A stretch of 64,000 bases of DNA from Candidatus Nomurabacteria bacterium (GTDB lineage Bacteria; Patescibacteriota; Minisyncoccia; Phycocordibacterales; UBA918). Location of the stretch: the NCBI GenBank assembly GCA_023898525.1, contig CP060227.1, positions 301,634-365,633 of the forward strand. The letters run 5' to 3'. The number at the start of each line of letters is the position of its first letter. Positions within the stretch are counted from its first letter, which is position 1. The notes below the pieces were generated by a model, which saw only the letters and a list, made by a program, of their open reading frames with translations, ran no database searches and was not told the origin of the DNA. Below, one piece after another: positions 12,916 through 63,913 of the stretch. A program made the translations under genes and the position numbers.

Positions 12916-13029
12916 ATAAAAAAGTATAGCACGACCATTAAATTTGTACGGATAAATAATGTGATTAGTTAGACAAAAGCCCCGCGCCTACGGCACGGGG
13001 CTTTTGTCTAACTAATCACATTTTACAAA

Positions 13030-25938: not shown

Positions 25939-25951
25939 AAAATATAAAACA

Positions 25952-25985
25952 AAAACCGCGCGCCAAGGGCGTGCGGTTTTTTACT
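25952..25985. terminator. Bidirectional terminator, copy A
   Basis: aaaaaccgcgcgcc aagg gcgtgcggttttt. Confidence 0.6.
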
Positions 25986-25996
25986 TTATTACTTAC

Positions 25997-26626
25997 CTAC
26001 ATATATTTCCTTCTCCATAAAAGCATAATATATAAACTGGTATTCCCTACAGTTTGTACTAGTACATAGGTGACTGTAAGTAGATTATACTCAGTTAATG
26101 AAATGATAACGAGTATTGCAGCTATTGCCATAATTAACCAAAATGAAGCAGTTTCACTATAAGGTTCTGTGTATGATTTTCTAAAAGTTGGGACATAACT
26201 CAATGCCTCAATAAAAGAAACTGTTAGCACTGCAAGTGACGGGTTGTCTAACTGCCACCAAAAGATAATTGCCAATAAAGCAAAAAAGAGAATTATTGTG
26301 TCACTCTTTGTTATATTCTTGGTACCGTATTTTAGAGACAATATAAGAATTAGTGCCATTAAACTTGTACCTATAATTAGTACCGTACTTCCAAAAACAC
26401 CTCCTCCTCCGTTTATTAACGCTACTAAGGCTGTTGCTTGTGTGATTATTACAATAAGCCAAGTATACAAATGGGGTTGAGTATTCTTTTGTAGAATATC
26501 TTTAATATAAGGTGCAAATCCTATGATCACTAGTATAGAAGCTACAACTGAAGCTGCTAATTTTATATCTACGTTCTCAAACATAATTAAATAATAACAC
26601 TGAATTTTCAAAATTAAGTATGACAA
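25997..26626 (-). CDS. Polytopic membrane protein (6 predicted TM), unknown function
   Basis: Hydrophobic helices throughout. The start may be MFENVDIK (26584). Confidence 0.5.
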   Translation of the reverse strand: MSYLILKIQCYYLIMFENVDIKLAASVVASILVIIGFAPYIKDILQKNTQPHLYTWLIVIITQATALVALINGGGGVFGSTVLIIGTSLMALILILSLKYGTKNITKSDTIILFFALLAIIFWWQLDNPSLAVLTVSFIEALSYVPTFRKSYTEPYSETASFWLIMAIAAILVIISLTEYNLLTVTYVLVQTVGNTSLYIMLLWRRKYM

Positions 26627-26660
26627 AAACCGCGCGCCAAGGGCGTGCGGTTTTTGTTTT
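26624..26660. terminator. Bidirectional terminator, copy B (identical 31-bp core to copy A)
   Basis: The same aaaaaccgcgcgccaagggcgtgcggttttt sequence. Confidence 0.6.
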
Positions 26661-26674
26661 TATTTATTATTTAA

Positions 26675-49873: not shown

Positions 49874-51472
49874 CTAATTATCCTCACCCCGCCTTTTTAT
49901 CAACCAAAGCAAAAATAAAATTAAAAAAGTACCTACTCCTAAATAAAAAAGTGGTGAGGTATATTTAATGGCTGTAACAATTTTATCAGGAAATACAACT
50001 TCTGGATTAGTCTGAACATTTGACACCACAAAGTCAATTTGTTTCTTTTTAGTAGCCACTACCTTGGCTTCAAAATCAAAAACCTCAACCTGCAACCTTG
50101 AAACACCAAGTACATTAAGTGGCGCTATGGTCGCTTCGTAAGCCGTCTTCTCGGTATTTAGACGGAGTAAAAAAGAATAGCTACGACGCTGATCCGTTGG
50201 ATCAAGAATGGTAACAATTATTGACTTAAGGTGTTTTGGTAGCGCTTCGTAAGGAATCCTGATAACAAACTGCTCTTGGTAAACTAAAGGAATTCTTTCC
50301 GAAGCAAAGGTATATATTAAATCTGACTGTAACAAATAAATATCCTCTCGTCCTAAAATGGAAGGTAACTCATCAGTTAACTCCGTGTTTTCAACTTTGT
50401 CCGAATCAGTTGATATGGTACCAGTAGCTGGTAAGTCATTAGTTGATTCTACCGGTGAAGAAAAAAACCGAGAAACAGATACAACCGCTCCCGATGAGAT
50501 ATTATCATTATCATCTATTACAAATACACTATAGAATTGCTTACCCGCATCTTTTAAAGCACCTTTGTCGGTCGCTCCTGCCCCTGTACCGCTGTAAATA
50601 ATTTTACCGTCATAGATATCAGCTGGGTAACTATTTGGATTCCTCACTACTCTAATTTCTTTTATCGACACCGAAGTCGGTGATTGCCATGACAAAATTA
50701 CATCATCAATATCTTGTCTGGCCTGCAATCTCAAAACATTAGGCGGTGAAAAAATCTCTGTTGTTTCCACAGTCTTAAACTGACCCGTTTTTAATATAAC
50801 CTTGTTACCAGACGGAGTAATAGCTGTAAGCTCATACCAGTAGTCGGTAGCCGGCTCTAATTCAGCCAGTATTGTCTTATGAGAAGTACTGAAGGTTTCA
50901 TTGGTGATATATCCGTCTTTATATTCATAGGTTTTACCCCATCTTATTAAGTAACGGGAAATTCCATAAGTTTGCCATTCAAGGATTGCTTTATTTGTAA
51001 AAGTTATCACCTCTATATTTTTCAACTGAACAGCCCTAGTTGATTGTGAGCCAGAATTGTTCGCAATATCGGTTGAGGTGGGAGTTGTAGGTGGTGGCGG
51101 TAAAGACAAGGTTGTAGTCGATAAAGCATTTGAGGTTGTCGACAGATTGTACGAAGTATCAAAAGCATAAACCTCATAAGTATAGGGTGTTTCAGAATTT
51201 AGTCCGCTATCACTGTAAGACGTGAGTGTGGTAGTGGCAATTGCCACACTATCACGTGATAACACATACCCACCAACCGCCAAATTATCAGTAGAGACAC
51301 TCCACGCTAAATCAATCTGTGAAGCAGTCACTGGTACAGCCGACAACAGCACTGGTGTTGTTGGGGGCTGAGTATCATCACCAACTAACGTTTTAATTGT
51401 AAATTGATCTGTAGCTGCAAAACTCGCAATCGGTGACAATGTCAACACGCAGGTTAGTATAAACTTGATCAT
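49874..51472 (-). CDS. Secreted FN3-domain surface protein with a C-terminal TM anchor
   Basis: Signal peptide, a Pro/Thr linker, at least 3 fibronectin-III-like modules (QIDLAWSVSTDNLAVGGYVL...YTYEVYAFD), a C-terminal hydrophobic helix and KRRGEDN. It overlaps the next gene by 4 bp. Confidence 0.6.
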   Translation of the reverse strand: MIKFILTCVLTLSPIASFAATDQFTIKTLVGDDTQPPTTPVLLSAVPVTASQIDLAWSVSTDNLAVGGYVLSRDSVAIATTTLTSYSDSGLNSETPYTYEVYAFDTSYNLSTTSNALSTTTLSLPPPPTTPTSTDIANNSGSQSTRAVQLKNIEVITFTNKAILEWQTYGISRYLIRWGKTYEYKDGYITNETFSTSHKTILAELEPATDYWYELTAITPSGNKVILKTGQFKTVETTEIFSPPNVLRLQARQDIDDVILSWQSPTSVSIKEIRVVRNPNSYPADIYDGKIIYSGTGAGATDKGALKDAGKQFYSVFVIDDNDNISSGAVVSVSRFFSSPVESTNDLPATGTISTDSDKVENTELTDELPSILGREDIYLLQSDLIYTFASERIPLVYQEQFVIRIPYEALPKHLKSIIVTILDPTDQRRSYSFLLRLNTEKTAYEATIAPLNVLGVSRLQVEVFDFEAKVVATKKKQIDFVVSNVQTNPEVVFPDKIVTAIKYTSPLFYLGVGTFLILFLLWLIKRRGEDN

Positions 51473-52257
51473 AGAGGTACAGCTGTTAGGGTAGAGGTCG
51501 CCACATAGTCACCAGCTATCGCACCCGCTTCACTACCAATACCAACCTTGAAATAAAGCGTGGTCGTAGCTCCACTCGGTTGGTTAGCCGCTCCCTGCGC
51601 GATGGTCTTATTAGTCGTGGACAAACCATCCCAACAAGTTAAAGCTGTACTGTTGCTACCAATGTTACAATTTGAAGTATCATTTAACCAGCGCTGGGTC
51701 ACATCATTCCCTTGCGGTGAAAAACCAAAGTAGGTATCAGTGGTTCCATACGTAAAAGACATATCTGGATCCGGTGAAGCGGTTGGAATATAGTCAGAAA
51801 TAGTATCAACCCCTTTTTGCATGGCCGGGTTATTTTCAGCAGCTATGGTCAATTGGTAACCACTAGGACTATCCGTCATAACCGAGACGCTGGTAGAACC
51901 ATTAGATTCACCTCCGGTTAGACCACCCAAACTTGTCATAACAACATCGGGTACCGTAGTTATACTAATAAAAACCTCTTGCATCTGCTGATATCCAGCT
52001 TTTAGTGAATAAGCTGAACTCGTACCTTCACCAGTAGCTATTTCGCCAGCAGTGCTCTCTAGTTCATAATTAGTAGAAGTTGATAAGCCGCCACCAAAGT
52101 TCAAACTGTCACTTTGCAATTGATAATTTGAACTGCTACGCACCTGAGCTTCAGACAAAGATAACAAACCCAAGATTATTGCGGTTAACAAAAATGATTG
52201 TATTGAACTAATAAACAAATCTCTAAAGTACATGCTAACTCCGACGTTTAAATTCAA
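51469..52257 (-). CDS. Ser/Thr/Gly-rich secreted protein with a WxL-like C-terminus (paralog A)
   Basis: Signal peptide, a beta-rich low-complexity body and conserved Cys pairs. The C-terminus LTCWDGL...GDYVATSTLTAVPL resembles the two C-terminal WxL motifs (LTWxL, ...tYtgtLtWtL) of Firmicutes WxL proteins, with Trp replaced by Ala in the second motif. Confidence 0.42.
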   Translation of the reverse strand: MNLNVGVSMYFRDLFISSIQSFLLTAIILGLLSLSEAQVRSSSNYQLQSDSLNFGGGLSTSTNYELESTAGEIATGEGTSSAYSLKAGYQQMQEVFISITTVPDVVMTSLGGLTGGESNGSTSVSVMTDSPSGYQLTIAAENNPAMQKGVDTISDYIPTASPDPDMSFTYGTTDTYFGFSPQGNDVTQRWLNDTSNCNIGSNSTALTCWDGLSTTNKTIAQGAANQPSGATTTLYFKVGIGSEAGAIAGDYVATSTLTAVPL

Positions 52258-53320
52258 ACGTCCTAAAAAAAGCTCTAATACCGAATAGTATAATAAATAT
52301 AGCTAAGAATATTCCACCAGTAACCTTCCAAGGTAGCACCCAGAAAGATACTGAAACCTCGTCCACAATATCATCATAGCCACGATTAACCAGGGCTGTG
52401 GCTGTATACCTACCAAACAGCAGCTCGCGATCCCAGGTTACAGTTCTTGAGCGGAGTGACTTAGGCAGAGCAAACCATGGGTCAAGCTCAACAAAACCAA
52501 CTTCCTCTCCCAAAATATTTTTTACCCTAAGTTCACCATAAGGATTAAGGTGGATTGACCCAGTATTCTCATAAAGTACATTCATTTCTATTGGCCCTTT
52601 TTCGTACCACCACTTACCATTAGCCAACGCTATCTCTTTAGTTTCTCCACTAGTCTTAATGTCACCTGGAACAGTGATGAAAAACAGAGTACCGACCCGA
52701 GCGATTATCGGTGACCGCGGTACATCATTATCTTCCTCACCGTTGTTTTCACGAATTGTAGAAACTAAAACACCTCCATAGTATCCACCTGGCTCAGCAT
52801 CTGGCGGTATAGTTATAGTAACAGGTATCCTGGCTCGCTCACCAAGAGATAGTGTAAATGAATCTTCTGGAAAGCTTATATAATCTTTTATGGTATACGG
52901 ACCTTTTTCATCTCCAAGTAATACGACCGAATCGCGACCATCATCAGAACCAGCGATATCCTCAACTTCAAGTTTAAAGATTCGGTCGTCACTAATACGG
53001 TTAGCCACCGATATTGGATAAACGACTGTTTCGCCAGGCTTAATTTCGAGTTCAGCCCTACCAGGACCAACTACAAAGTCACCTTGTTGAATATTATTTC
53101 CAGTTAACTGTTCAACTTCAAACCAAGGCTCTTTGTCGTTAACGCTCTCAGTCGTAGTGGCCAAAGCAGTATCTAAACCTGAGGTTGATGTATCTGTCTC
53201 AGTATTAGTTTGTGCTCTAGACGTCTGAGTTAAACTAAAAACTATGATTAGTGTTACCAGTAAAACTAATGAATAAATAACGCTGTGCTTTGTACTCTCT
53301 GAATTTGTAGTCATAACCAT
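52235..53320 (-). CDS. Signal-peptide plus C-terminal TM protein with DUF916/DUF3324-like architecture
   Basis: 361 aa. Signal/TM, two beta-sandwich-like halves (PDAEPGGYYGGVLVS; YENTGSIHLNPYGEL...FWVLPWK), then a C-terminal TM (GGIFLAIFIILFGI) and a basic tail. Its size and topology match the DUF916-DUF3324 proteins found in WxL (Csc) loci. Confidence 0.45.
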   Translation of the reverse strand: MVMTTNSESTKHSVIYSLVLLVTLIIVFSLTQTSRAQTNTETDTSTSGLDTALATTTESVNDKEPWFEVEQLTGNNIQQGDFVVGPGRAELEIKPGETVVYPISVANRISDDRIFKLEVEDIAGSDDGRDSVVLLGDEKGPYTIKDYISFPEDSFTLSLGERARIPVTITIPPDAEPGGYYGGVLVSTIRENNGEEDNDVPRSPIIARVGTLFFITVPGDIKTSGETKEIALANGKWWYEKGPIEMNVLYENTGSIHLNPYGELRVKNILGEEVGFVELDPWFALPKSLRSRTVTWDRELLFGRYTATALVNRGYDDIVDEVSVSFWVLPWKVTGGIFLAIFIILFGIRAFFRTFEFKRRS

Positions 53321-53335
53321 GTGACTACTTTATCG

Positions 53336-54034
53336 TTATTGGTTGAGTGCTGTCAAGGTTGCAGTTGCTGTGTATGTATCGGTTTCTATTGTTGGACTTG
53401 GAGAGTTTGGTACGTATACCCGAAAATTTATGGTTGTTGTGGCACCAGTAGTGGCAGCTGAACTTCTATTTATGATTTGAAATCCAGTTGTTTGCGGTTC
53501 CATCCAACAGGTTAGAGGATTACTACTTCCTGATGTGTTACAACTACCGGCTCCGTTATCTTGAAACGATTGATCAACATCAGAGGCGTTGTCAGCGGTG
53601 GCGGTGTAAGCAAAGACAGCTGAAGTACTGGCAGTATAGAAACCGTATGTTGGTTCACTACTAGAAGCAGTATAATCGTGAATTGAGGTACCGGCATAAG
53701 CATCACCCACCATAGCATTATCTGTACCATTATCGGTGAATGCAATAGACATAGTGTAGCCAGTAGAGCTGTTGGTGGTAACAACAGCTGTCGTTGTACC
53801 GTTTGATGTACCTCCAGTCACACCGTTGATGCTACCACTCATAGTGACATCAGTTGGCTGAACTAGAAACGAAATCTCTCCTGTGATAGTCTGCTTAATA
53901 GTAAAAGCGTTACTGTCTACAGCTTGACCAACTCTTGGTTCAGCCACAAAGAAAGTAGCTGCTACAAAAGTAATAATTACGAAAGATGTTAAAAGTGCTT
54001 GCCAAGCTGAATTTATATAATGATTAATATTCAT
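53336..54034 (-). CDS. Ser/Thr/Gly-rich secreted protein with a WxL-like C-terminus (paralog B)
   Basis: It is homologous to 51469..52257 (VTGGTSNGTTTAVVTTNSSTGYTMSIA vs LTGGESNGSTSVSVMTDSPSGYQLTIA). The C-terminus is LTCWMEP...DTYTATATLTALNQ. Confidence 0.42.
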   Translation of the reverse strand: MNINHYINSAWQALLTSFVIITFVAATFFVAEPRVGQAVDSNAFTIKQTITGEISFLVQPTDVTMSGSINGVTGGTSNGTTTAVVTTNSSTGYTMSIAFTDNGTDNAMVGDAYAGTSIHDYTASSSEPTYGFYTASTSAVFAYTATADNASDVDQSFQDNGAGSCNTSGSSNPLTCWMEPQTTGFQIINRSSAATTGATTTINFRVYVPNSPSPTIETDTYTATATLTALNQ

Positions 54035-54132: not shown

Positions 54133-57100
54133 TTATACTCTACCTCCACCTCCACCTCCCCCGCCACCAGTTTGGTGAAACACACGCACTTCAAGCGCGT
54201 CTAGGTTTATGGTATTACTTTCAGGCGTAGCGGTAACTCTTATTAAGAAGGTACTGGGTGTAAATTCAGTTGATGACCAAGTTCTCCCCCACGTATCTGT
54301 ATTACCACCAACCGTATAAACAATATCTGTTCCAGATAAAGTTGGAGTGGCCTTTCCGGTAGTGTAAGAAGAACCGCCGTCCCAGGACAAAGAAACATCG
54401 ACTGTGCCGGTAGCCGTAGTACCAGAAATATCCAGCTTTACTGCTATACCTTGTATAGTATTACTTCCAGGTATACTGAAGTTAAATCCAGTATAACTCT
54501 GACGTAAGCTACTGGTAGAAGCAGTGGCATAAACACCATCAGAATTGTAAGCGTTTTCCGGATTAGTCCATTCGTTGTTAGGAGTACCTGTGTTACTTGG
54601 ACTAAAGTAGTTGGGGCTATAAGTAATATTCTCATCATCTACATTCTGTCCTACATTACCACCTCCACCCGAACCACCACCTGTTTCCATACCGTTTCCA
54701 GGTGGAGGCGTATCTCCAGTGCGAGATGAACTTCCTCCCGAGCCTGCTGTATTTCGTATATGCTGAACCTCATCTACAGAACCGATAATAACCGGAGACA
54801 CAGCAGAAGTTGTACCAACAGATGTTATTCCGGTAACTGGTAAACTAATCGTCATTGAATCACCTCTATCTATAGAGCTTGTATTACCAATTATCAAATA
54901 ATCAGAACTGGTCGTAGCATAGAAGTCAGTACTGAAAGTAATCGCCCCGAGCTGACCATTAACAGTCATAATACCGGAGTTGTCTAACAACTCATCACCA
55001 CCATCCATTACTTGGTCATTGTTGATATCACGATATAGACGTAAAGTATCCACATTGTCGGTGTCAATTCCCTGTACTCCCCTCAAAGTGAACACAATAT
55101 CTGTGACTGTCACATCCTCTCCTGATGGATCTAAAGAGAAAGCGTATAATGCTTCATCGGTCTTATTTTGGAAACTAAACTGGTTACTTACCTGACCCAA
55201 AGTATGATTACCTAAAGTCATGGATCCGCTTATATCTATGGTTTTGGTGTCCTCCGTAATTGCAGTTGTCGTAGCTGAGCCATCTACATGCAAAGCAAAT
55301 TTACCAGATGTAGTACTGACTGTCGAAAAACTACCAACTTCTATGTTATCAATAGTCAAAGTGTCTCCGTTTACAAAATCACTAGTCACATCAATCAATA
55401 ATGTAGCTCCACCATCCTCATATGAAACAGTACTAAACACCTTCCCTGAAGCGGTTCCGCCAAATGTTGGAGTTGTTACACCAGTACTAAAATAGAAGTC
55501 GGTGGTAGTAGTAGCTATAGTAATACGAATGTCATTGGCCGCGACTATGTTGGTGCTACTAGAATTTTTAGTGATAGTAATTTGATCCAAAGTTGTGGAT
55601 GCTTGACCAACGTAGAAATTATAACTATAAACCGAAGCCAGTGTGACAGGAACATTCGTATTCCAATTAGTATTATTACCACTATCAATACAACCAGTAC
55701 CACAATTTATAGTTGTAATATTTATATTGTCCGAATCTTGCACGTCCAAATAAGCAACAGTGGTGCTGGCTCGTGGATCTATGTACCATTCTCCGGTAGA
55801 GCTACTAGAGCGTAATGATAAGAGGTTGCCGTCGGTACCGGTTAAAGTTAATTGATCTTCTATGACATAAGTTCCACCAGATGAAAAGGTTAAAGTGTCT
55901 GCGGTGGTCACTTCTTTGGATAGAGTATAAAAAGTAGTGGTGGCTGACGAGACCAGTGATTGACTGGTACCAGATAAAGTTATGGTTCCGCTAGAGTGGT
56001 TGAAGGTACCGTAGTTACTCATGTCACCGGCTACAGTAAGACTGCTTGGAGCGGTTAGAGTGGATGAAGTAGAGATGGTGAGATTGGTGGTGGAGGAGAT
56101 ATCTTGAAAAGTGACTTGACCGGTTATTATTAGGCTACTAAAATCATCACCACTAACCATGCTTCCGCTCATATTTGCCGGCACACGAAAAGACATAAGC
56201 TCACAACCAATCGCTGAACCAGCGACCTGGGAACAGGCGGTAGCATCTGCAGATTTACCAATGTAAATATTATCTCCAACCTTGATTAAGTTATTTATAT
56301 CTTCTAGTCCGGTGCCAGTACTACCACCGTTCACATCTCGCCCTGCCACGTAAATCGGGTTGGTGGTGGAGGAGATGTCGAAAACCATTAGTTCGCAGCC
56401 GTCGGCTGAGCCAGCGGTTTGCGAGCAAGCAGTAGCATTTTGAAGCTTCCCTAAATATAGATAATCACCATCCACGTAGATAGAAGTCGCATTAATATTT
56501 CCTACTCCAGTATCATCCCCTGTCACATCTCGTCCTGCCACGTAAATCGGGTTGGTGGTGGAGGAGATGTCGAAAACCATTAGTTCACAACCTCTGGCGG
56601 AGCCGGCGGTTTGGGAACAGGCGGTGATATCTCCACTTTTACTCATATATAGGTAGTTACCAGAGATTTGAATATCATACACAGCCTCTGCTTTGTTACC
56701 AGTACTAGAACCATCCACATCTCGCCCTGCCACGTAAATCGGGTTGGTGGTGGAGGAGATGTCGAAAACCATTAGTTCACAACCAATCGCTGAGCCGGCG
56801 GTTTGGGAACAGGCAGTAGGGTCTTGAGTTTTTCCTATATACAAATAATTACCCCTAATCGCTATACTATCGATATTCTCACCTCCAGTTCCTGTACTAT
56901 CACCAGTAACGTCTTGTCCTGCCACATATATCGGATTAGTCGTAGAAGAAATATCGTAGACCATAAGTTCACAACCAATCGCTGAGCCGGCGGTTTGGGA
57001 ACAGGCAGTAGTGTCAAAACCCTTCCCGATATATAAACTACTTCCAGATATTGCTAAAGACCTGATATCTAATGCAGTAGTTCCTGTACTTGAACCATCC

Positions 57101-58164
57101 ACATCTCGTCCTGCCACATATATCGGATTAGTCGTAGAAGAAATATCGTAGACCATAAGTTCACAGCCATCAGCTGAGCCGGCGGTTTGGGAACAGGCAG
57201 TAGCGTTACCAGATTTACCAACATACATATAATCACCACTTATAGCTAGTGCATACACACTATCATTACCGGCTCCGCCTGTATTATCACCCGCCGTGTC
57301 TCTTCCGGCTACATATGTAATATTAGTAGAAGATGAAATGTCATATATTTGTAACTCACAACCTCTAGCTGAGCCGGCGGTTTGAGCACAAGTATCAGTA
57401 CTAGCAGTATGTCCTACAAATAATGAGTTACCTGAGACAGCAAAAGAGTCTATCCAAATACTAGTAATTCCAGAACTAGAACCGTCAGCATCTACGCCCC
57501 CGTTATATCCACTAAGGTATGCCTGTATTTCTAAAGTCCCACTGTTATTGGTGAATGTATCAATATTCTCATAATCTCCTGAAACTATAACGGTATTAGT
57601 TGGAGCCAAAAATTCCCCCTGATTAATTAACAGATTTGCCACAATTTGAGTACTCGCACCAGAATTTGTATACAAAATATCTGTATCATCAGAACTATCG
57701 TAAAAAGAAAAATCATCACTATATAAAATATCTGTACTACTGGCTGTGTGTGATACTACATAGTTATGATAAAGAGGCACACTGGTAATATCAGACCCTT
57801 TATAACCCATCACTATCGTTGTAGCCTTATCTGTTTCACCACCAAGCCATACAGTAAAAGGTGTCGTGGTAGAAAGATTAACATCATCAATATCTGTAAA
57901 GCTCCAAGTTCCACCAGCACCAGTGGTTGCTGAGTGAACACTGACTGTAGAAGTACCAACAGCCACTTTAACAGTTTTACCAGAAGTATCAGTTGTAACA
58001 CCTTTGTCGACATAGAGCGTTCCAGATAGGGTTATGGTCGCTGCATTTACCTGATTAATATCATTAAACTGACTAAAAAAAGTAAATATGATTACAGAAA
58101 AAACAAATAGTCGCACTATGTTTGTTTGAATTATATTGATTTTTTGTATAATTTTTTTTCTCAT
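54133..58164 (-). CDS. Giant (1343 aa) secreted protein with LVIVD-like beta-propeller repeats
   Basis: N-terminal signal/TM; at least 7 tandem ~62-aa repeats (YxGK...ATACSQTAGSAxGCELMVFDISSTTNPIYVAGRDVxG...) that resemble LVIVD repeats; a Ser/Thr-rich beta-rich C-terminal half; ends in a Gly9 run. Confidence 0.7.
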   Translation of the reverse strand: MRKKIIQKINIIQTNIVRLFVFSVIIFTFFSQFNDINQVNAATITLSGTLYVDKGVTTDTSGKTVKVAVGTSTVSVHSATTGAGGTWSFTDIDDVNLSTTTPFTVWLGGETDKATTIVMGYKGSDITSVPLYHNYVVSHTASSTDILYSDDFSFYDSSDDTDILYTNSGASTQIVANLLINQGEFLAPTNTVIVSGDYENIDTFTNNSGTLEIQAYLSGYNGGVDADGSSSGITSIWIDSFAVSGNSLFVGHTASTDTCAQTAGSARGCELQIYDISSSTNITYVAGRDTAGDNTGGAGNDSVYALAISGDYMYVGKSGNATACSQTAGSADGCELMVYDISSTTNPIYVAGRDVDGSSTGTTALDIRSLAISGSSLYIGKGFDTTACSQTAGSAIGCELMVYDISSTTNPIYVAGQDVTGDSTGTGGENIDSIAIRGNYLYIGKTQDPTACSQTAGSAIGCELMVFDISSTTNPIYVAGRDVDGSSTGNKAEAVYDIQISGNYLYMSKSGDITACSQTAGSARGCELMVFDISSTTNPIYVAGRDVTGDDTGVGNINATSIYVDGDYLYLGKLQNATACSQTAGSADGCELMVFDISSTTNPIYVAGRDVNGGSTGTGLEDINNLIKVGDNIYIGKSADATACSQVAGSAIGCELMSFRVPANMSGSMVSGDDFSSLIITGQVTFQDISSTTNLTISTSSTLTAPSSLTVAGDMSNYGTFNHSSGTITLSGTSQSLVSSATTTFYTLSKEVTTADTLTFSSGGTYVIEDQLTLTGTDGNLLSLRSSSSTGEWYIDPRASTTVAYLDVQDSDNINITTINCGTGCIDSGNNTNWNTNVPVTLASVYSYNFYVGQASTTLDQITITKNSSSTNIVAANDIRITIATTTTDFYFSTGVTTPTFGGTASGKVFSTVSYEDGGATLLIDVTSDFVNGDTLTIDNIEVGSFSTVSTTSGKFALHVDGSATTTAITEDTKTIDISGSMTLGNHTLGQVSNQFSFQNKTDEALYAFSLDPSGEDVTVTDIVFTLRGVQGIDTDNVDTLRLYRDINNDQVMDGGDELLDNSGIMTVNGQLGAITFSTDFYATTSSDYLIIGNTSSIDRGDSMTISLPVTGITSVGTTSAVSPVIIGSVDEVQHIRNTAGSGGSSSRTGDTPPPGNGMETGGGSGGGGNVGQNVDDENITYSPNYFSPSNTGTPNNEWTNPENAYNSDGVYATASTSSLRQSYTGFNFSIPGSNTIQGIAVKLDISGTTATGTVDVSLSWDGGSSYTTGKATPTLSGTDIVYTVGGNTDTWGRTWSSTEFTPSTFLIRVTATPESNTINLDALEVRVFHQTGGGGGGGGGRV
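56160..57420. repeat. Near-identical ~186-bp tandem DNA repeats inside the 1343-aa gene
   Basis: Units begin at ~56334, 56524, 56714, 56900 and 57093. Long blocks are identical, e.g. ctgccacgtaaatcgggttggtggtggaggagatgtcgaaaaccattagttc x3 and atatcggattagtcgtagaagaaatatcgtagaccataagttcaca x2. Confidence 0.8.
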
Positions 58165-58225: not shown

Positions 58226-61200
58226 TTAAGGTGACGTTTCATCTAGTTCAGAAACTTCTACTTCTGACGGACTGGAGTCTTCTACCATTTCCTCCACTAC
58301 CTCTACATTTTCTTCTTCTGTCTCGCTCATTGCAACCTCCCCACTCTCACTATCAATGTTTTCACTTTCATCATCTTTAACAACTTCTCCGACATCTTCT
58401 ACTATTAGTTCTAAATCTACTTCTGTATCATTTTCAATATTTTCTTGGTACTCACTATCCCCCTCTATGTCTGTTGTACTAGTAGAAGTGGTTGTGGTAA
58501 CAGTTTTTTCTTCATTTATCTCTTGGTCTGTATCTTCCTCTACCACTTCATTTGCACTTGTCTGTGGTGAAGTTGAATCTTCTTGAGCCTGAACCGGTTC
58601 TTCGTGAGATTTATTTATTACTTCTCTATCCTTTTCTATATTATTATTGGTATTATTTACCGGAGACTCACTCACTCTGTTAAGTAGTACTCGAAGGTCA
58701 TCAGCCCCAACACACACACCATCGACACATAGTTCATTTTGCACCTCCACCCGATCGGCTTTAAGAGTAAAGACAGAAAGTACACCGTCGATGAAATTGT
58801 TGGCTAGATTAACCAGACGCTCCCAAATAGTTACATCTGACTTAGAACCATTTGTGCTGCTAGCATTTGCCAACAAAGAATCTATAATTTTAAGCCCTTC
58901 GTCATCCAAGTAGCGGTATCCTAGATCCACAAACATTACAATCTGCCCCACCCGCACAGACTGACCGTTTTCCAAAATTTCAGTGTCGCTCTTTATGCGA
59001 GACAGCGATTCAAGTGCTTTTCTCTCCGCTTCAGCTTCAGCTAAAGCTTCCGCCTCTTTGATCTGAGCATCGGTAGTAGTTGCTTCAAGCGGTACACACT
59101 CTTCTTCTCCGGTAGCATTTCCTCCACCGTAGTAACATCCGTCGTGCATACGCGGATCCTCAACTCTGTTTATTGGTTCAAATATCGGATCAACCAAATC
59201 GTCTCCGAATTGATTAATATATGTATCTGAGTAAGCCCTAGTTTCCACAAAATCTTCCAAAGCCACACCGATTATCTTACCGGTTGAAGTCGCCTTCATC
59301 GCTACTCCTGGAATCGAAGAAAGGGTAAGCTCATCACCGGCTTTGATCGATCCGTTTTCATTTGAAAGCTTGATAGGAACACGTCCAGATAGAGCAATTG
59401 GGAACACCTCCTCTCCTTCCTCCAATGATGAATCATCATAACCCAACAAGAGACCAGGCTTGGTTGAAACCACACCGATTATTTTGTTCTTCGTATCTGT
59501 ATCCGCCCTTCCTACAGAAAGACCGCCTTTGGTATACACAATTTCTCCCGCTTCAAGATTTTCACTTGAGAAGTATGTTTCCGCAAGGTCAGAATTTCCT
59601 GTATGAGTCGATACTGATGCTATCCGTCCGGTAGTCGAAGCGTTACACGAACCGTCATTATCAACACAAAGGCCCCCATAACCAATCTGCAAACCGGCAT
59701 TATTACTGGTAGTACCATCACCAATAGTTAACATTCCGTAAGCTCCAACGGTGAACATAGAAGTTCCTGCGTTTTGCAGATCGACGAATTTTGAAGCGGT
59801 GGTTGAAGAAAATGATCCACCACTATTACCAAAATTCATTAAAAGACCCGTGCCGGTAAAGGTTGAAGTATCTTGGAATAACTTGAGTAAAGAAGCTGTT
59901 GTAATAGAAGATGAATAACCTCGAATAGCATTACCTTGTGTAGTTCCAGTTGTCTCACCAAACACACCGGCCGGCTCATACGAACCACCAGCATCACCTG
60001 AAGTGATACCCTTAACACCGAAAGTTCGCGCGTACCCTGACATAGCTGTATTTTCTCCCAAAGTGTTTGCTCCCCAGTCACTCTGAACTTCTAAACCTCT
60101 AACTGTATTTCCAAACGTCGTAGCGTCTTCTATTTTTATAAAATTACCAACCAGTGTACTAGTAGCTGTATTGGTGGCATATAGATATGACCGATCGCCG
60201 TACTGTGTAGAGCTGGCAGTGCTGTTAGCAAAGGTCAAATACCTATCTATACCCGCTACCCCGGCGTCAGCATAATTTAGATTTTCAATAGTCAGACGCG
60301 AAGCTGGAGTAGTGGTAGCAATACCAATACTTCCATCGTTTTTGATATATAACCTATCCGTGTAACTTCCGGTAGTTTGGAATCTAAAATCTCCAGTAGC
60401 GTTTGGTAATATAAAATTCATGCTACCACTAGTATCAGAACCACCTATTAGTACATTGTTAGCTGAACTCATGGATAATAAAGATTTAACACTACCCGCA
60501 TTGTCTCTAGTGGCAAGACTGTAGTTATTAGGTATAAATATATGGCCATCCACCGTCAGCTTCCTTACCGCTGTAGTAGTACCAATAGACACATCACCAC
60601 CAGAGCTCACATAAATACCCTCATCGTCTCCGTCACCTGAAAGGAAATTAGAGCCGAGAGCTATGTTAGCCGCTGTGCCGGACATGGTCAGGTTACCGGC
60701 AAATGAACCCGTGCCACTGACAGTAAGGTTTCCATCTAAGTAAGTATTGCCAGTGACAGTAAGCTTGGAAGAAGGAGTAGTACTACCAATACCAATGTTT
60801 CCACTAGATAGTGAAGTACCGGTACCATCAATACCAGTACCGAAGATAAGGTTACCTATAGATAATTGATTAGACCCAGTTGAAGAAGCGGCATCAATAT
60901 CATAACCAATTAATATATTGTTTGAACCAGTCGTGACTATGTTACCCGCTCTATAACCAAGGAATATATTATTAGAACCGGTTGTTAAAGCCTCACCGGT
61001 TTCTGAACCGAATAACGAGTTATTTGAATAAGAGTTACTAAGTACACCAATACCGGCATGGTAACCAACTGCAGTGTTGCTACTGGCCGCACTTGAAACA
61101 TAGCGCATCGCATTACTACCAACCGCCACATTTTTAGCACCGGTAGAAATATTCTGAGCCGTAAAAGCACCATAAGCTGTATTATCATCACCGGTAGTAA

Positions 61201-63913
61201 CACTTAGAGAATTGGTACCAAAAGCTGAGTTTGCACTACCGGCAGAATTACCCGCCAAAGCAGAAGAACCGAAGGCATTATTATTTCCTCCAGTAGTGTT
61301 AGAGTTTAAAGCATTAATACCAAAGGCGTTATTATATCCTCCGGTAGTGTTTAGTTTTAGAGCACTATATCCAAAAGCAGAGTTGTTAACTGAAATGTTG
61401 TTGACCAAAGCATCAATTCCGACTGCAGTTTGCGTAGTATTTATCACCATTGCACTAGCTGAATTCATGGTAATTACTCCACCGGTAGTTTGGGTAGTAA
61501 GGTTGACTACCCCTAAGGAACCATCAGCAATATTGTCTGTATAAGTAGTGGTAGAGTTATCGTTTATAGTCGTTACCAAATACATAGCCCCCCAGACACC
61601 ATCCGCATCTTTGTTACGATAAATCTTTCGTCCGGTCACGGCTGGGTCGCTAGATACTGGGATATTGGTTAGATTAATCTCTTGGGATGACGGTGATACT
61701 TGACCAGAAAGTTTACCGACCTCAGTTTCACCGGTAGCGGTAATGTAAGAAACTCGGTAGCGATAGGTGCCCGACAAACTTCCCGCCCCACCCAAGGCAA
61801 TACTTGGTGTCACGGTAGACGGTGCGTCAACTATTGAGAACCGTAAATCCCCAGCGCCGATGTCTAATTTTGCTTGTGGTGTTGAAGTACCAATACCCAA
61901 ATTAGTCCCATCAAATACTAAATCAGCATCATCCGTCACCGCAGTACCACCACTGTTAGCAAACAACAGTCGGTTAGCCGTGTATGAAGAGATGGTGTCA
62001 GAGAGACCAAGAAAAGTTCCGTCTCCTAGACCGAGGGTAGAGGTAGAGATCCAGTCAGTGCCGGTGCCGGTTGAGGAGAGAATTTGGCCTAAGGTTCCAG
62101 AGGCGTTAGAAGAGTCAAATAGTGCTCCAGTGATGAAAGCGTCGCCAGCAACGGTAAGCTTTGAAGACGGCGTGGTGGTGCCGATGCCGATGTTTCCGTT
62201 ATTGAGAATTTTCATAACAGGGTTTGAGGTAGAACCGATTTCAAACTGTATGACACCAGAGTCATTAGGGACACCCAGTATCATACTGCCGCTAACTGTA
62301 GATCCGTTTATGAGAACATTGTTAGCTGAAGTCATGGACAAGAGAGAAACATTGTTAGCAGAAGTATCTCTAGTCATAAAACTATAATTATTTGGAATAT
62401 AGATACTTCCATCCACATTAAATTTAGCCACGTCAGTTGTGGTACCGATAGAAACATCACCAACGTTATTTACATAAATACCCTCATCATCACCATCGCC
62501 GGAGAGCCAATTAGAACCAAGGATGATATTAGCCGCAGTACCAGACATAGTTAAACTATCAGAAAAAGTACTTGTGCCGGCTACGGTCAAATCTCCTTCT
62601 AGGTAAGTACTGCCAGTAACTGTAAGTCTGGAGGATGGAGTAGTGGTGCCGATGCCGATGTTGCCAGCAGAACTTATAGTAGTAGTTGCTGTTCCGTTAA
62701 CAAAATTTAGAGAACCATTACCCCAACCGACAACAGCATCATCTTGGTTGTGGAAAAATTCTATATAGTCATCAACCTGACCCTCGTCTGAAGAATAAAC
62801 ACGGAAAGTCGGGTTGTCAGTATTATTACTTACTATTCTGTTATCATTCCGTTCTCCCAAAATAAAATATCCACTAGTGTTTAAATAACCTCCTACTCGG
62901 GTTTCAGCAACCATCGCTTCATAACCACCGCTATTTCGATAAAGAAATCTTGCCGTGGATTGAGAACCTAAAGTAAAATCAATATTATCATTCAGAGCTA
63001 AAGCACTGTTAAATAATATACCGGCACTACTTCCGTTTAAGGTATCTTGACCCAATGTAATAAAATACTGATGATCAGTACCTATGTTTAAACACTGGTT
63101 ATAAGTACTACCACTTCCACACAATCGAATATCTCCATTGGTATCATTTTCTATGTATTCATCGTTGGCTAAAGTCGTCGTTCCCGATAAAGAGGTTACA
63201 CCAGAAACAGTCAGATTACCTGACGTATCAACATTTCCATCAAAGTAAGAATTACCAACAACTGTCAGCTTACTGTCTGGTGTGGTGGTGGCGATACCAA
63301 CGTTGCCATTGTTTAGGATGGTGAACATTTCTGTAGCACCTGCAAACAAACTTAGTATCTTACCTGCACCATTTTGAATTAAGGTCAAAAGAGCAGAACT
63401 ACTTGTAGCCTCCATAGTGTCAGCATCATCTGCGCGCAAGAAAGAAGTGGTAGCAAAACCATCAAAGGTGTTAGCATTCTCTGCAATAAACGCTGCCGGT
63501 ACCGCGCCCAGCACTTTTCGAGGAGACATTTCGCCGTCCCAACTTGGTGTACCAGTTCCTCCAATCTCCACACCCAAGTAAAGGGACTGGTCGAAATCTA
63601 CCGAACCCAAGGAAGACACGTCACCGAGCATGACTGAGAAGAGGCCGTTAGTGACAGTCACCTTATTTACTCCCGTTCTGGCCTCAGACCAGATAGCGGT
63701 TGAAGTAGCTGCCGTACTGGAAGACAGTAGCCAGAAATTCATGTTGTAGTCACCGTCTGCTACCGCCACGCCAACAGAATCAGTTAGTTTACCTTGGTAA
63801 TTTATCTCCTGATTGAACTGTGCCAAAGAGACAAAAGGAGAAACCATAAAAGCAAAAACCAGCACTAGTGTGCTTATCATGAAAAGTATTTTGTTTGGAA
63901 GCAAAATTTTCAT
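58226..63913 (-). CDS. Giant (1895 aa) secreted protein with tail-fibre/YadA-head-like beta-roll repeats and an acidic C-terminal tail
   Basis: Signal peptide (ISTLVLVFAFMVSPFVSLA); repeated NIGIGTTTPSSKLTV(T/A)G modules; ~15-residue NxA(F/I/V)Gxx(A/S)xxxxTTGxx repeats (NNAFGSSALAGNSAG, NTAVGYHAGIGVLSN, NNIFLGYRAGNIVTTGS...). There is an internal ~350-aa duplication (TAANIILGSNWLSGDGDDEGIYV / TAANIALGSNFLSGDGDDEGIYV), and the last ~150 aa are strongly acidic (E/D/S/T-rich). Confidence 0.7.
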   Translation of the reverse strand: MKILLPNKILFMISTLVLVFAFMVSPFVSLAQFNQEINYQGKLTDSVGVAVADGDYNMNFWLLSSSTAATSTAIWSEARTGVNKVTVTNGLFSVMLGDVSSLGSVDFDQSLYLGVEIGGTGTPSWDGEMSPRKVLGAVPAAFIAENANTFDGFATTSFLRADDADTMEATSSSALLTLIQNGAGKILSLFAGATEMFTILNNGNVGIATTTPDSKLTVVGNSYFDGNVDTSGNLTVSGVTSLSGTTTLANDEYIENDTNGDIRLCGSGSTYNQCLNIGTDHQYFITLGQDTLNGSSAGILFNSALALNDNIDFTLGSQSTARFLYRNSGGYEAMVAETRVGGYLNTSGYFILGERNDNRIVSNNTDNPTFRVYSSDEGQVDDYIEFFHNQDDAVVGWGNGSLNFVNGTATTTISSAGNIGIGTTTPSSRLTVTGSTYLEGDLTVAGTSTFSDSLTMSGTAANIILGSNWLSGDGDDEGIYVNNVGDVSIGTTTDVAKFNVDGSIYIPNNYSFMTRDTSANNVSLLSMTSANNVLINGSTVSGSMILGVPNDSGVIQFEIGSTSNPVMKILNNGNIGIGTTTPSSKLTVAGDAFITGALFDSSNASGTLGQILSSTGTGTDWISTSTLGLGDGTFLGLSDTISSYTANRLLFANSGGTAVTDDADLVFDGTNLGIGTSTPQAKLDIGAGDLRFSIVDAPSTVTPSIALGGAGSLSGTYRYRVSYITATGETEVGKLSGQVSPSSQEINLTNIPVSSDPAVTGRKIYRNKDADGVWGAMYLVTTINDNSTTTYTDNIADGSLGVVNLTTQTTGGVITMNSASAMVINTTQTAVGIDALVNNISVNNSAFGYSALKLNTTGGYNNAFGINALNSNTTGGNNNAFGSSALAGNSAGSANSAFGTNSLSVTTGDDNTAYGAFTAQNISTGAKNVAVGSNAMRYVSSAASSNTAVGYHAGIGVLSNSYSNNSLFGSETGEALTTGSNNIFLGYRAGNIVTTGSNNILIGYDIDAASSTGSNQLSIGNLIFGTGIDGTGTSLSSGNIGIGSTTPSSKLTVTGNTYLDGNLTVSGTGSFAGNLTMSGTAANIALGSNFLSGDGDDEGIYVSSGGDVSIGTTTAVRKLTVDGHIFIPNNYSLATRDNAGSVKSLLSMSSANNVLIGGSDTSGSMNFILPNATGDFRFQTTGSYTDRLYIKNDGSIGIATTTPASRLTIENLNYADAGVAGIDRYLTFANSTASSTQYGDRSYLYATNTATSTLVGNFIKIEDATTFGNTVRGLEVQSDWGANTLGENTAMSGYARTFGVKGITSGDAGGSYEPAGVFGETTGTTQGNAIRGYSSSITTASLLKLFQDTSTFTGTGLLMNFGNSGGSFSSTTASKFVDLQNAGTSMFTVGAYGMLTIGDGTTSNNAGLQIGYGGLCVDNDGSCNASTTGRIASVSTHTGNSDLAETYFSSENLEAGEIVYTKGGLSVGRADTDTKNKIIGVVSTKPGLLLGYDDSSLEEGEEVFPIALSGRVPIKLSNENGSIKAGDELTLSSIPGVAMKATSTGKIIGVALEDFVETRAYSDTYINQFGDDLVDPIFEPINRVEDPRMHDGCYYGGGNATGEEECVPLEATTTDAQIKEAEALAEAEAERKALESLSRIKSDTEILENGQSVRVGQIVMFVDLGYRYLDDEGLKIIDSLLANASSTNGSKSDVTIWERLVNLANNFIDGVLSVFTLKADRVEVQNELCVDGVCVGADDLRVLLNRVSESPVNNTNNNIEKDREVINKSHEEPVQAQEDSTSPQTSANEVVEEDTDQEINEEKTVTTTTSTSTTDIEGDSEYQENIENDTEVDLELIVEDVGEVVKDDESENIDSESGEVAMSETEEENVEVVEEMVEDSSPSEVEVSELDETSP

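Follow-up and report, generated by a model that had tools for sequence, protein, structure and literature searches.

A predicted seven-bladed LVIVD-type propeller encoded by 192-nucleotide tandem repeats in a surface protein gene of a Candidatus Nomurabacteria bacterium

Introduction

Copy-number-variable surface proteins, for example the alpha C protein of group B streptococci and the staphylococcal proteins Aap/SasG, are encoded by essentially identical DNA units and have an open, beads-on-a-string organization in which any copy number is tolerated. Another surface-protein repeat is LVIVD, a unit of 42 amino acids described from archaeal and bacterial cells (Adindla et al. 2004, PMC2447325). 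Beta-propellers are called highly symmetric when the median identity of their blades exceeds 60% (PMC9218822). The tandem repeat described here lies in a gene of a Candidatus Nomurabacteria bacterium, within a stretch of 64,000 nucleotides that was analysed as a whole (the window; assembly GCA_023898525.1, contig CP060227.1, positions 301,634 to 365,633).

A previous reading of the window, made from the letters alone (the sequence-only reading), had described the array as near-perfect repeats and as a possible hotspot of repeat-number variation. More probably, the array encodes the blades, of 64 residues each, of a closed seven-bladed propeller of the LVIVD type, and is not a copy-number switch.

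Anatomy of the repeat array

The tandem array is real and well above chance. Tandem Repeats Finder reports 4.5 copies of a 192-nucleotide (nt) period at positions 56332-57203, with 75% matches, and a repeat search of the window finds six copies at an exact spacing of 192 nt having 62-81% identity to the reference copy. The sequence-only reading had located the array properly, at about 56160-57420, and had quoted its peptide motif (TACSQTAGSA...) correctly, but the period is 192 nt (64 residues) and not about 186. Its assignment to a giant gene needs correction: the carrier is the open reading frame (ORF) of 1343 codons at 54133-58164 on the minus strand, encoding a putatively secreted LVIVD-repeat protein, and not the neighbouring ORF of 1895 codons, which contains no unit.

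In translation, the array begins with a partial unit having only the second half, or tail, continues with six full units of 64 or 65 residues (residues 258-642, positions 56239-57393), and ends with a partial unit having only the first half, or core. All of these are on the minus strand. A profile hidden Markov model (HMM) was built from units 2-6 and was also run on the homologues. A full unit begins with a core of 34 residues (ACSQTAGSAxGCELMVFDISSTTNPIYVAGRDV) followed by a tail of 30 residues. The leading partial (residues 220-257, 57394-57507) matches HMM positions 27-61 only, a pattern common to the homologues, and forms part of the split closing blade. Unit 1 (residues 258-322, 57199-57393), 65 residues long, is the most divergent of the full units, with amino-acid identities of 0.55-0.60 to the others. 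Units 2 and 3 (residues 323-450, 56815-57198) share a synonymous haplotype of the core, A, and units 4, 5 and 6 (residues 451-642, 56239-56814) share another, B, with codons ending in C. The trailing partial (residues 643-660, 56185-56238), ACSQVAGSAIGCELMSFR, has just the first 18 residues of a unit and matches HMM positions 1-33; in the closing blade it forms the innermost strand, E462-466 in the AlphaFold2 (AF2) model described below.

The units are far from near-perfect copies. Compared over their whole length, units 2-6 have nucleotide identities of 0.64-0.76, with a median of 0.70, and the median blade identity in amino acids is 0.67 for the six full units and 0.71 for units 2-6. The similarity is concentrated in the core, where 30-32 of the 34 residues are identical among units 2-6, as opposed to only 10-17 of the 30 residues of the tail. 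Long identical stretches, as claimed from the letters, do occur in the core in five of the ten pairs of these units (58 nt between units 2 and 3, 41 between 3 and 4, 59 between 4 and 5, 63 between 4 and 6 and 53 between 5 and 6); in the remaining five pairs the exact runs are just 8-26 nt long.

Two other descriptions of the array were considered and dropped. A two-unit super-repeat of 384 nt was suggested by Tandem Repeats Finder, but units i and i+2 are no more alike than neighbours. A diversity-generating retroelement was considered as the source of the tail variation, but a template-like repeat of the array is present nowhere else in the window.

Predicted structure of the propeller

The array corresponds to a predicted beta-propeller domain spanning residues 219-668 (56161-57510, minus strand). 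Residues 195-700 were aligned with 19 homologous propeller segments, and this 20-sequence alignment was the input to AF2. The resulting model has a mean predicted local distance difference test score (pLDDT) of 87 and a predicted template modelling score (pTM) of 0.88. DSSP assigns a pattern of four strands that recurs with a period of 64 residues, with exactly seven strands of each type. The closing blade is split in the manner of a "velcro" closure, its strands 2-4 coming from the N-terminal partial unit and its strand 1 from the C-terminal one.

All top matches of the model in a Foldseek search of the PDB are beta-propellers. The best is a phosphotriesterase of Sphingobium (PDB entry 5hrm; E 2.9e-11, template modelling (TM) score 0.48-0.49), followed by WD40, Kelch and designed propellers. 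The moderate TM scores would be in keeping with a blade length about 20 residues above the usual one. One unit is one propeller blade in both the AF2 model and the Foldseek matches, as the sequence-only reading had supposed. The two inner strands, together with a Cys-x9-Cys loop, are formed by the conserved half of the unit. In the variable half are the loop preceding strand 3 and strand 3 itself, the tail being assigned the variable loop and the two outer strands. The two cysteines of the conserved loop, Cys259/269 and their counterparts, may form a disulphide, and the variable residues of the tails may constitute a ligand-facing surface.

Constraint and homogenization at the codon level

Codons were compared among units 2-6, separately for cores and tails, and synonymous and nonsynonymous divergences (dS and dN) were calculated by the NG86 method. 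With the codon usage of the window, the chance level of identical codons for the same residue is 0.38-0.42. Within the groups {2,3} and {4,5,6} the cores are closely related: identical codons are found at 26 of 30 same-residue positions for units 2 and 3 (core dS 0.18), 28 of 31 for units 4 and 5, 24 of 31 for units 4 and 6 and 23 of 31 for units 5 and 6, with dS of 0.17-0.47 throughout. Between the groups, the identical codons fall to between 8 of 29 and 17 of 31. The pairs 2-6, 3-5 and 3-6 are at or near chance, and the pairs 2-4, 2-5 and 3-4 are moderately higher (0.53-0.55). Between-group core dS ranges from 0.97 to saturated, where it is uncomputable, at a dN of only 0.03-0.09. The two haplotypes differ at 12 of the 14 codons 14-27 of the core, 11 of these differences being synonymous and one a Y/F replacement.

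The tails have a dS of 0.9-2.1 and a dN of 0.4-1.0, and their fraction of identical codons (0.27-0.60) is at chance level. Even for the within-group pairs, the tails show a dS of 0.9-1.2 and an identical-codon fraction of 0.36-0.55. The contrast between core and tail is significant by Fisher's test for units 4 and 5 (p=0.003), 2 and 3 (p=0.017) and 5 and 6 (p=0.034). The conservation of third codon positions that had been claimed for the units consequently applies within {2,3} and within {4,5,6}, and there to the 34-codon core only; between the groups it is at or moderately above chance, and in the tails at chance. On careful alignment most unit pairs are divergent at synonymous sites, an outcome that the sequence-only reading had itself listed as speaking against its proposal.

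The cores are also mosaic. Unit 4 groups with units 2, 3 and 5 over codons 1-12, and specifically with unit 3 over codons 9-11, but over codons 14-27 it goes with units 5 and 6. The synonymous partitions inside the core are incompatible, changing from 2345 versus 6 to 23 versus 456 at codon 13/14. For the pairs 2-3, 3-4, 4-5, 4-6 and 5-6, a permutation test based on the longest fragment of identity yields p<=0.003. The syntenic orthologues P0007, P0005 and P0003 are independently patchy in a like manner, with identical-codon fractions that are mostly 0.2-0.6 and reach 0.9-1.0 in a few pairs.

The haplotype B segment of units 4-6 has a GC content at third codon positions (GC3) of 0.80, compared with 0.31 for the gene. 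More generally, GC3 is raised in the conserved core codons and not in the tails, both in the array (56239-57393) and in the orthologous loci L002, L003 and L004. Observed and expected core GC3 are 0.47 and 0.27 for the window gene, 0.50 and 0.24 for P0007 and 0.35 and 0.20 for P0005; P0003 has no excess. Either GC-biased gene conversion or selection favouring accurate codons where residues are constrained could account for the excess.

Homologues from many Patescibacteria keep the core motif in all of their blades, which indicates that protein-level constraint is the dominant force, with short-tract gene conversion probably acting patchily on top of it. The sequence-only reading had invoked recent duplication or concerted evolution "rather than protein-level constraint". 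Concerted evolution finds support in the mosaic haplotypes, in the low core dS within groups and in the relationships of blades within one propeller described below, but constraint cannot be set aside in its favour, as the core keeps 30-32 of its 34 residues at a dS of about 1 or more.

The history of the array is probably as follows. The repeats would be old, with synonymous sites saturated in the tails and between the core haplotype groups, and strong purifying selection would hold the amino-acid sequence of the core. The conserved core would keep the DNA similar enough for occasional conversion over short tracts of about 40-100 nt, mostly between neighbouring blades, and such conversion would leave patches of perfect identity between units. 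Gene conversion would thus be the homogenizing mechanism. The six full units together with the split seventh blade would close the ring, so that the number of blades would be fixed by ring closure and the array would not serve as a copy-number switch.

In a different history, the propeller would have been amplified recently from a single blade, in the sense of Pereira and Lupas, and positive selection would then have driven a fast diversification of its tails, the core remaining static. The median blade identity of 0.67 lies above the 60% limit for highly symmetric propellers (PMC9218822), and the tail dN of 0.4-1.0 is about equal to the dS, both as expected of such a history. When the six tails of the window gene were compared with all tails of P0003, P0004, P0005, P0007, P0012 and P0014, no diagonal of blade-by-blade orthology appeared, the scores tracking closeness to the consensus only; positional orthology of the blades was therefore not seen among orthologues. 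Nearest neighbours were also determined for 106 canonical blade cores, taken from 14 proteins: for 37 cores the neighbour was solely in the same propeller and for 20 more it tied with that propeller, compared with 4% by chance. The blades of one propeller thus do co-evolve, by conversion, by independent amplification as proposed for other propellers (PMC9218822), or by both. However, recent amplification would leave a low dS everywhere, and the saturated synonymous sites in the tails and between the core haplotype groups argue against it. The identity of the cores needs no recency either, given that the core motif is family-wide. Young cores between old tails exclude a simple recent duplication, and we regard the amplification history as a whole as quite unlikely.

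Unit number across the family

An exhaustive profile search of 1.84 billion representative proteins gave 842 matches with E<=1e-3, and 132 with E<=1e-30. Many of the matched proteins are 3000-5300 residues long, and as many as eight full-length matches to the propeller profile are found in one protein. In the homologues, complete blocks have the same layout as the window gene, one tail-only match, six full matches and one core-only match spanning 428-462 residues; more than 20 such blocks were found, one or two per protein. Among 190 internal blocks of 150 representatives, six full units are the clear mode and occur in 78, five in 16, seven in five and thirteen in three. The blocks of thirteen units are likely to be two adjacent propellers, and the lower counts are most likely due to divergent blades that escape the narrow HMM. 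In five clusters of homologues with at least 90% identity (about 25 sequences), unit counts and spacings are identical in all full-length members, the counts being 16, 16, 14, 14 and 8. Relatives of the window gene with more than 65% identity are absent from the protein database, from the GTDB genomes and from the JGI metagenomes.

The syntenic orthologues (loci L002 1422-6839, L003 6001-12114 and L004 6001-12744) are 1805-2247 residues long and have two seven-bladed propellers, compared with one in the window gene. P0003 additionally duplicates the N-terminal domain and the segment that follows the propeller. In the window gene, the N-terminal domain resembles the N-terminus of P0005, and the region after the propeller resembles the segment after propeller 2; its single propeller may correspond to propeller 1, to propeller 2 or to a recombinant of both. 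Length in this family, as judged by comparison of the orthologues, changes by whole propeller modules.

Near-identical homologues that differ by one 64-residue unit or in unit order were found in sequencing run SRR3989344 (P0009 and P0028; P0029, P0092 and P0093) and are the sole hint anywhere of heterogeneity in unit number. All of them are read assemblies made at the protein level, and repeat collapse is the likely cause. The one-unit difference between P0009 and P0028 was set aside as evidence, these being protein-level read assemblies accompanied by sibling sequences of the same run with shuffled units. Many contigs of 1-5 kb in metagenome-assembled genomes (MAGs), among them loci L008, L012, L016 and L041, consist almost wholly of a propeller gene or end inside one. 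Short-read assemblies thus often break in these genes, and unit counts taken from public MAGs need care.

The proposal of a repeat-number hotspot amounts to a contingency locus, in which slippage or RecA-mediated unequal crossing-over would add and remove units and thereby vary the protein in length and antigenicity. In Escherichia coli, homologous recombination is usually said to need at least about 25 bp. The exact tracts of 41-63 nt reach or exceed this minimal length, recombination between units evidently occurs, and the proposal could also draw on the P0009-P0028 difference and on the many MAG contigs that break inside homologous genes. Yet the units are only 64-76% identical overall, with no exact run longer than 63 nt, and the predicted structure is a closed seven-bladed ring with a split closing blade and not an open-ended array. 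The layout of six full and two partial units is dominant in the homologues and unit number is conserved family-wide and invariant in the five strain-level clusters, while the single one-unit difference comes from protein-level read assemblies with shuffled siblings. A contingency locus is thus very improbable. A true hotspot would have offered a handle on phase and antigenic variation in the uncultivated bacteria of the candidate phyla radiation (CPR), but that reading does not hold.

There is hardly any chance that the unit count or the identical tracts are artefacts of short-read collapse or chimerism, even though the sequence comes from a MAG, with a contig that stops 101 nt downstream of the gene in one assembly version, and homologous genes often lie at contig ends, because the DNA is identical over 7.1 kb in a second assembly version, the longest exact run between units (63 nt) is shorter than typical reads, a unique 90-nt tail anchors every unit, and the ORF is intact with the family-typical six full and two partial units.

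Several points weigh against a closed propeller of constant blade number, homogenized by conversion. The closure of the ring is a prediction, read from the strand pattern, the pTM and the fold matches. The constancy of unit number is known from homologues of the window gene, and P0009 and P0028, although both are of a kind of assembly prone to repeat collapse, do differ by exactly one unit. With no blade-by-blade orthology, independent amplification in each lineage is possible. The permutation p-values are optimistic, since the test ignores that core and tail differ in rate; stronger evidence is for this reason provided by the incompatible partitions and by the core-tail contrast in dS. A phase-shifted history of duplication could yield the mosaic of unit 4 with no conversion breakpoint, but it fails to explain identical cores flanked by saturated tails.

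Other parts of the LVIVD-repeat protein

The 1343-residue protein is a 100% match to P0001, a hypothetical protein of a Candidatus Nomurabacteria MAG with locus tag H6779_01545. As a whole it passes the Pfam family PF08309 (LVIVD) with 37.5 bits, compared with a gathering cut-off of 20.2 (E 1.4e-9), while not one single stretch of 42 residues passes alone. Its homologues carry a precomputed PF08309 assignment. A sequence search of the PDB with the whole protein gave no match at E<=0.1, and a search of PHROGs gave nothing. A scan for promoters and terminators found nothing above the expectation from shuffled sequence.

The N-terminus (residues 1-42, 58039-58164, minus strand) has a hydrophobic stretch, LFVFSVIIFTFF, followed by VNA-A, which by eye appears to be a signal peptide or an anchor. 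This is a typical signal sequence and would make the protein a Sec-exported surface protein.

The C-terminal domain (residues 1179-1334) is predicted to be a jelly roll and is followed by poly-glycine at residues 1333-1341 (54163-54630, minus strand). It is modelled by AF2 with a pLDDT of about 90, and has weak Foldseek matches to carbohydrate-binding modules (CBM4/16/22/32/6; E 2e-4 to 1e-2, TM score <=0.5). The domain is conserved in the homologues at 44-70% identity. Nine glycines and then the stop codon close the protein (domain and tail together, 54142-54630, minus strand). This poly-glycine end is kept in the homologues, with about 35 more residues following it in P0015, P0023 and P0026. 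A truncated immunoglobulin-like pilin domain, as in a tip-adhesin model, was also considered for the C-terminus, but is not supported by AF2 and Foldseek, which point to the jelly roll with its weak matches to carbohydrate-binding modules. Judging by its architecture, the protein is most likely a surface adhesin or a binding platform.

Neighbouring genes

Four genes downstream of the LVIVD-repeat gene (49874-54034, minus strand) encode proteins of 232, 361, 262 and 532 residues and have a conserved synteny in three orthologous loci. The shared downstream neighbourhood continues with the genes for GAPDH, RpiB and Rpe. The 232- and 262-residue proteins are paralogues, both small and secreted. 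The 361-residue protein has a signal peptide, a C-terminal transmembrane segment and a faint match to WxLIP_PGBD, and the 532-residue protein has an fn3 domain and a C-terminal transmembrane segment. The 262-residue protein matches the NCBIfam model CPR_pilus_PamT (NF058579) with E 3.4e-9 and 36.5 bits, far below the cut-off of 240. The other three have no NCBIfam match at E<=1, and a sequence search of the PDB with the 262-residue protein gave nothing meaningful.

The pam operon encodes a tip pilin, membrane-anchored chaperones and an anchor with fibronectin type III (FnIII) domains, PamR (bioRxiv 10.64898/2026.03.03.709456). According to the same preprint, the Pam system occurs mainly in Saccharimonadia and Microgenomatia and pam operons have a co-localized protein described as "tail fibre-like"; a propeller protein is unmentioned there. 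The cluster in the window resembles the Pam operon in having a small PamT-like pilin and its paralogue, a protein that combines a signal and a C-terminal transmembrane segment like the PamC/D chaperones, an FnIII protein with a C-terminal transmembrane segment like PamR, and a giant fibre-like neighbour. It differs in that only one of the four proteins has a detectable match, and that below the cut-off; the likeness is architectural and weak in sequence. A two-domain pilin of the PamA/B type was not found among the four proteins. The cluster is possibly a Pam-like pilus module, to be taken as a lead, and with it the recently described CPR pilus system may reach into another class, one from which the preprint does not report it. 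Attachment of the propeller protein to a pilus, or display jointly with one, is speculative.

Upstream of the LVIVD-repeat gene lies the gene for the putatively secreted protein of 1895 residues (58226-63913, minus strand), in which the unit HMM finds no LVIVD unit. This protein, whose C-terminus is very acidic, has three GN[VI]GI[GA]TTTPxS[KR]LTV motifs of DNA repeat family D3, at residues 203, 417 and 573. Pfam and NCBIfam give no match to it, and its match in PHROGs is weak and of unknown function. Homology of the LVIVD-repeat protein to this neighbour was looked for and found not to extend beyond the signal peptide. The 1895-residue protein may be the counterpart of the "tail fibre-like protein" of the Pam preprint.

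These elements could be joined in a single picture, in which the propeller protein and the 1895-residue protein are host-binding cargo of a divergent Pam-like module of Paceibacteria/Nomurabacteria, assembled by chaperones through donor-strand exchange, and in which segmental and possibly GC-biased conversion keeps the inner half-blades uniform while the outer halves diverge into seven different binding surfaces. Taken in its entirety this picture is tentative and rather unlikely.

Elsewhere in the window, two GC-rich hairpins with a run of T (25949-25995 and 26623-26669) are 89% identical to each other and resemble intrinsic terminators. They flank an ORF of 209 residues (25997-26626), and weaker copies are present at 12973 and 18326.

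Comparison with known systems

What the array adds lies mainly outside repeat-number variation. A high blade identity can apparently be attained by strong constraint and patchy conversion with no recent amplification, so that surveys relying on blade identity as a clock call for caution. A 64-residue variant of the LVIVD blade is defined that is widespread in giant surface proteins of Patescibacteria. The most interesting leftovers are the pattern of half-blade conversion with raised GC3 and the possible Pam-like operon that adjoins the gene.

The phosphotriesterase 5hrm of Sphingobium sp. TCM1, which has seven blades, resembles the domain described here in its beta-propeller fold and its size (494 and 506 residues are compared). 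The two are 12% identical in sequence and there is no sign of a shared active site; together with the modest TM score, this makes the likeness one of fold only.

The array agrees with the LVIVD family in scoring above the PF08309 cut-off, in having an ELMVFD strand that matches the LVIVD signature, and in being tandem, secreted and predicted to form a four-stranded propeller. It differs in its period, 64 residues as opposed to 42, and in its CPR host. The extra length consists of the conserved Cys-x9-Cys loop and a longer variable loop. By its sequence the array would be a long-blade variant of the LVIVD repeat.

Like the highly symmetric propellers, of which WRAP of Nostoc is an example (PMC6805158, PMC9218822), the array has a high median blade identity and blades that are closer to each other within the propeller than to the blades of orthologues. 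In WRAP, however, the blades are near-identical down to the nucleotide, whereas here the synonymous sites are largely saturated, identity is confined to a half-blade and conversion is patchy. The low synonymous divergence expected of a recent amplification is seen only in the core, and there only within {2,3} and {4,5,6}.

The alpha C protein and Aap/SasG have in common with the LVIVD-repeat protein that tandem coding repeats of about 200 nt are found in a surface protein. Unlike those of the copy-number-variable proteins, the units here are about 70% identical and are predicted to close into a ring in which their number is fixed. The tandem repeat is an ordinary structural repeat of an already known type, a highly symmetric LVIVD propeller in a surface protein of Patescibacteria.

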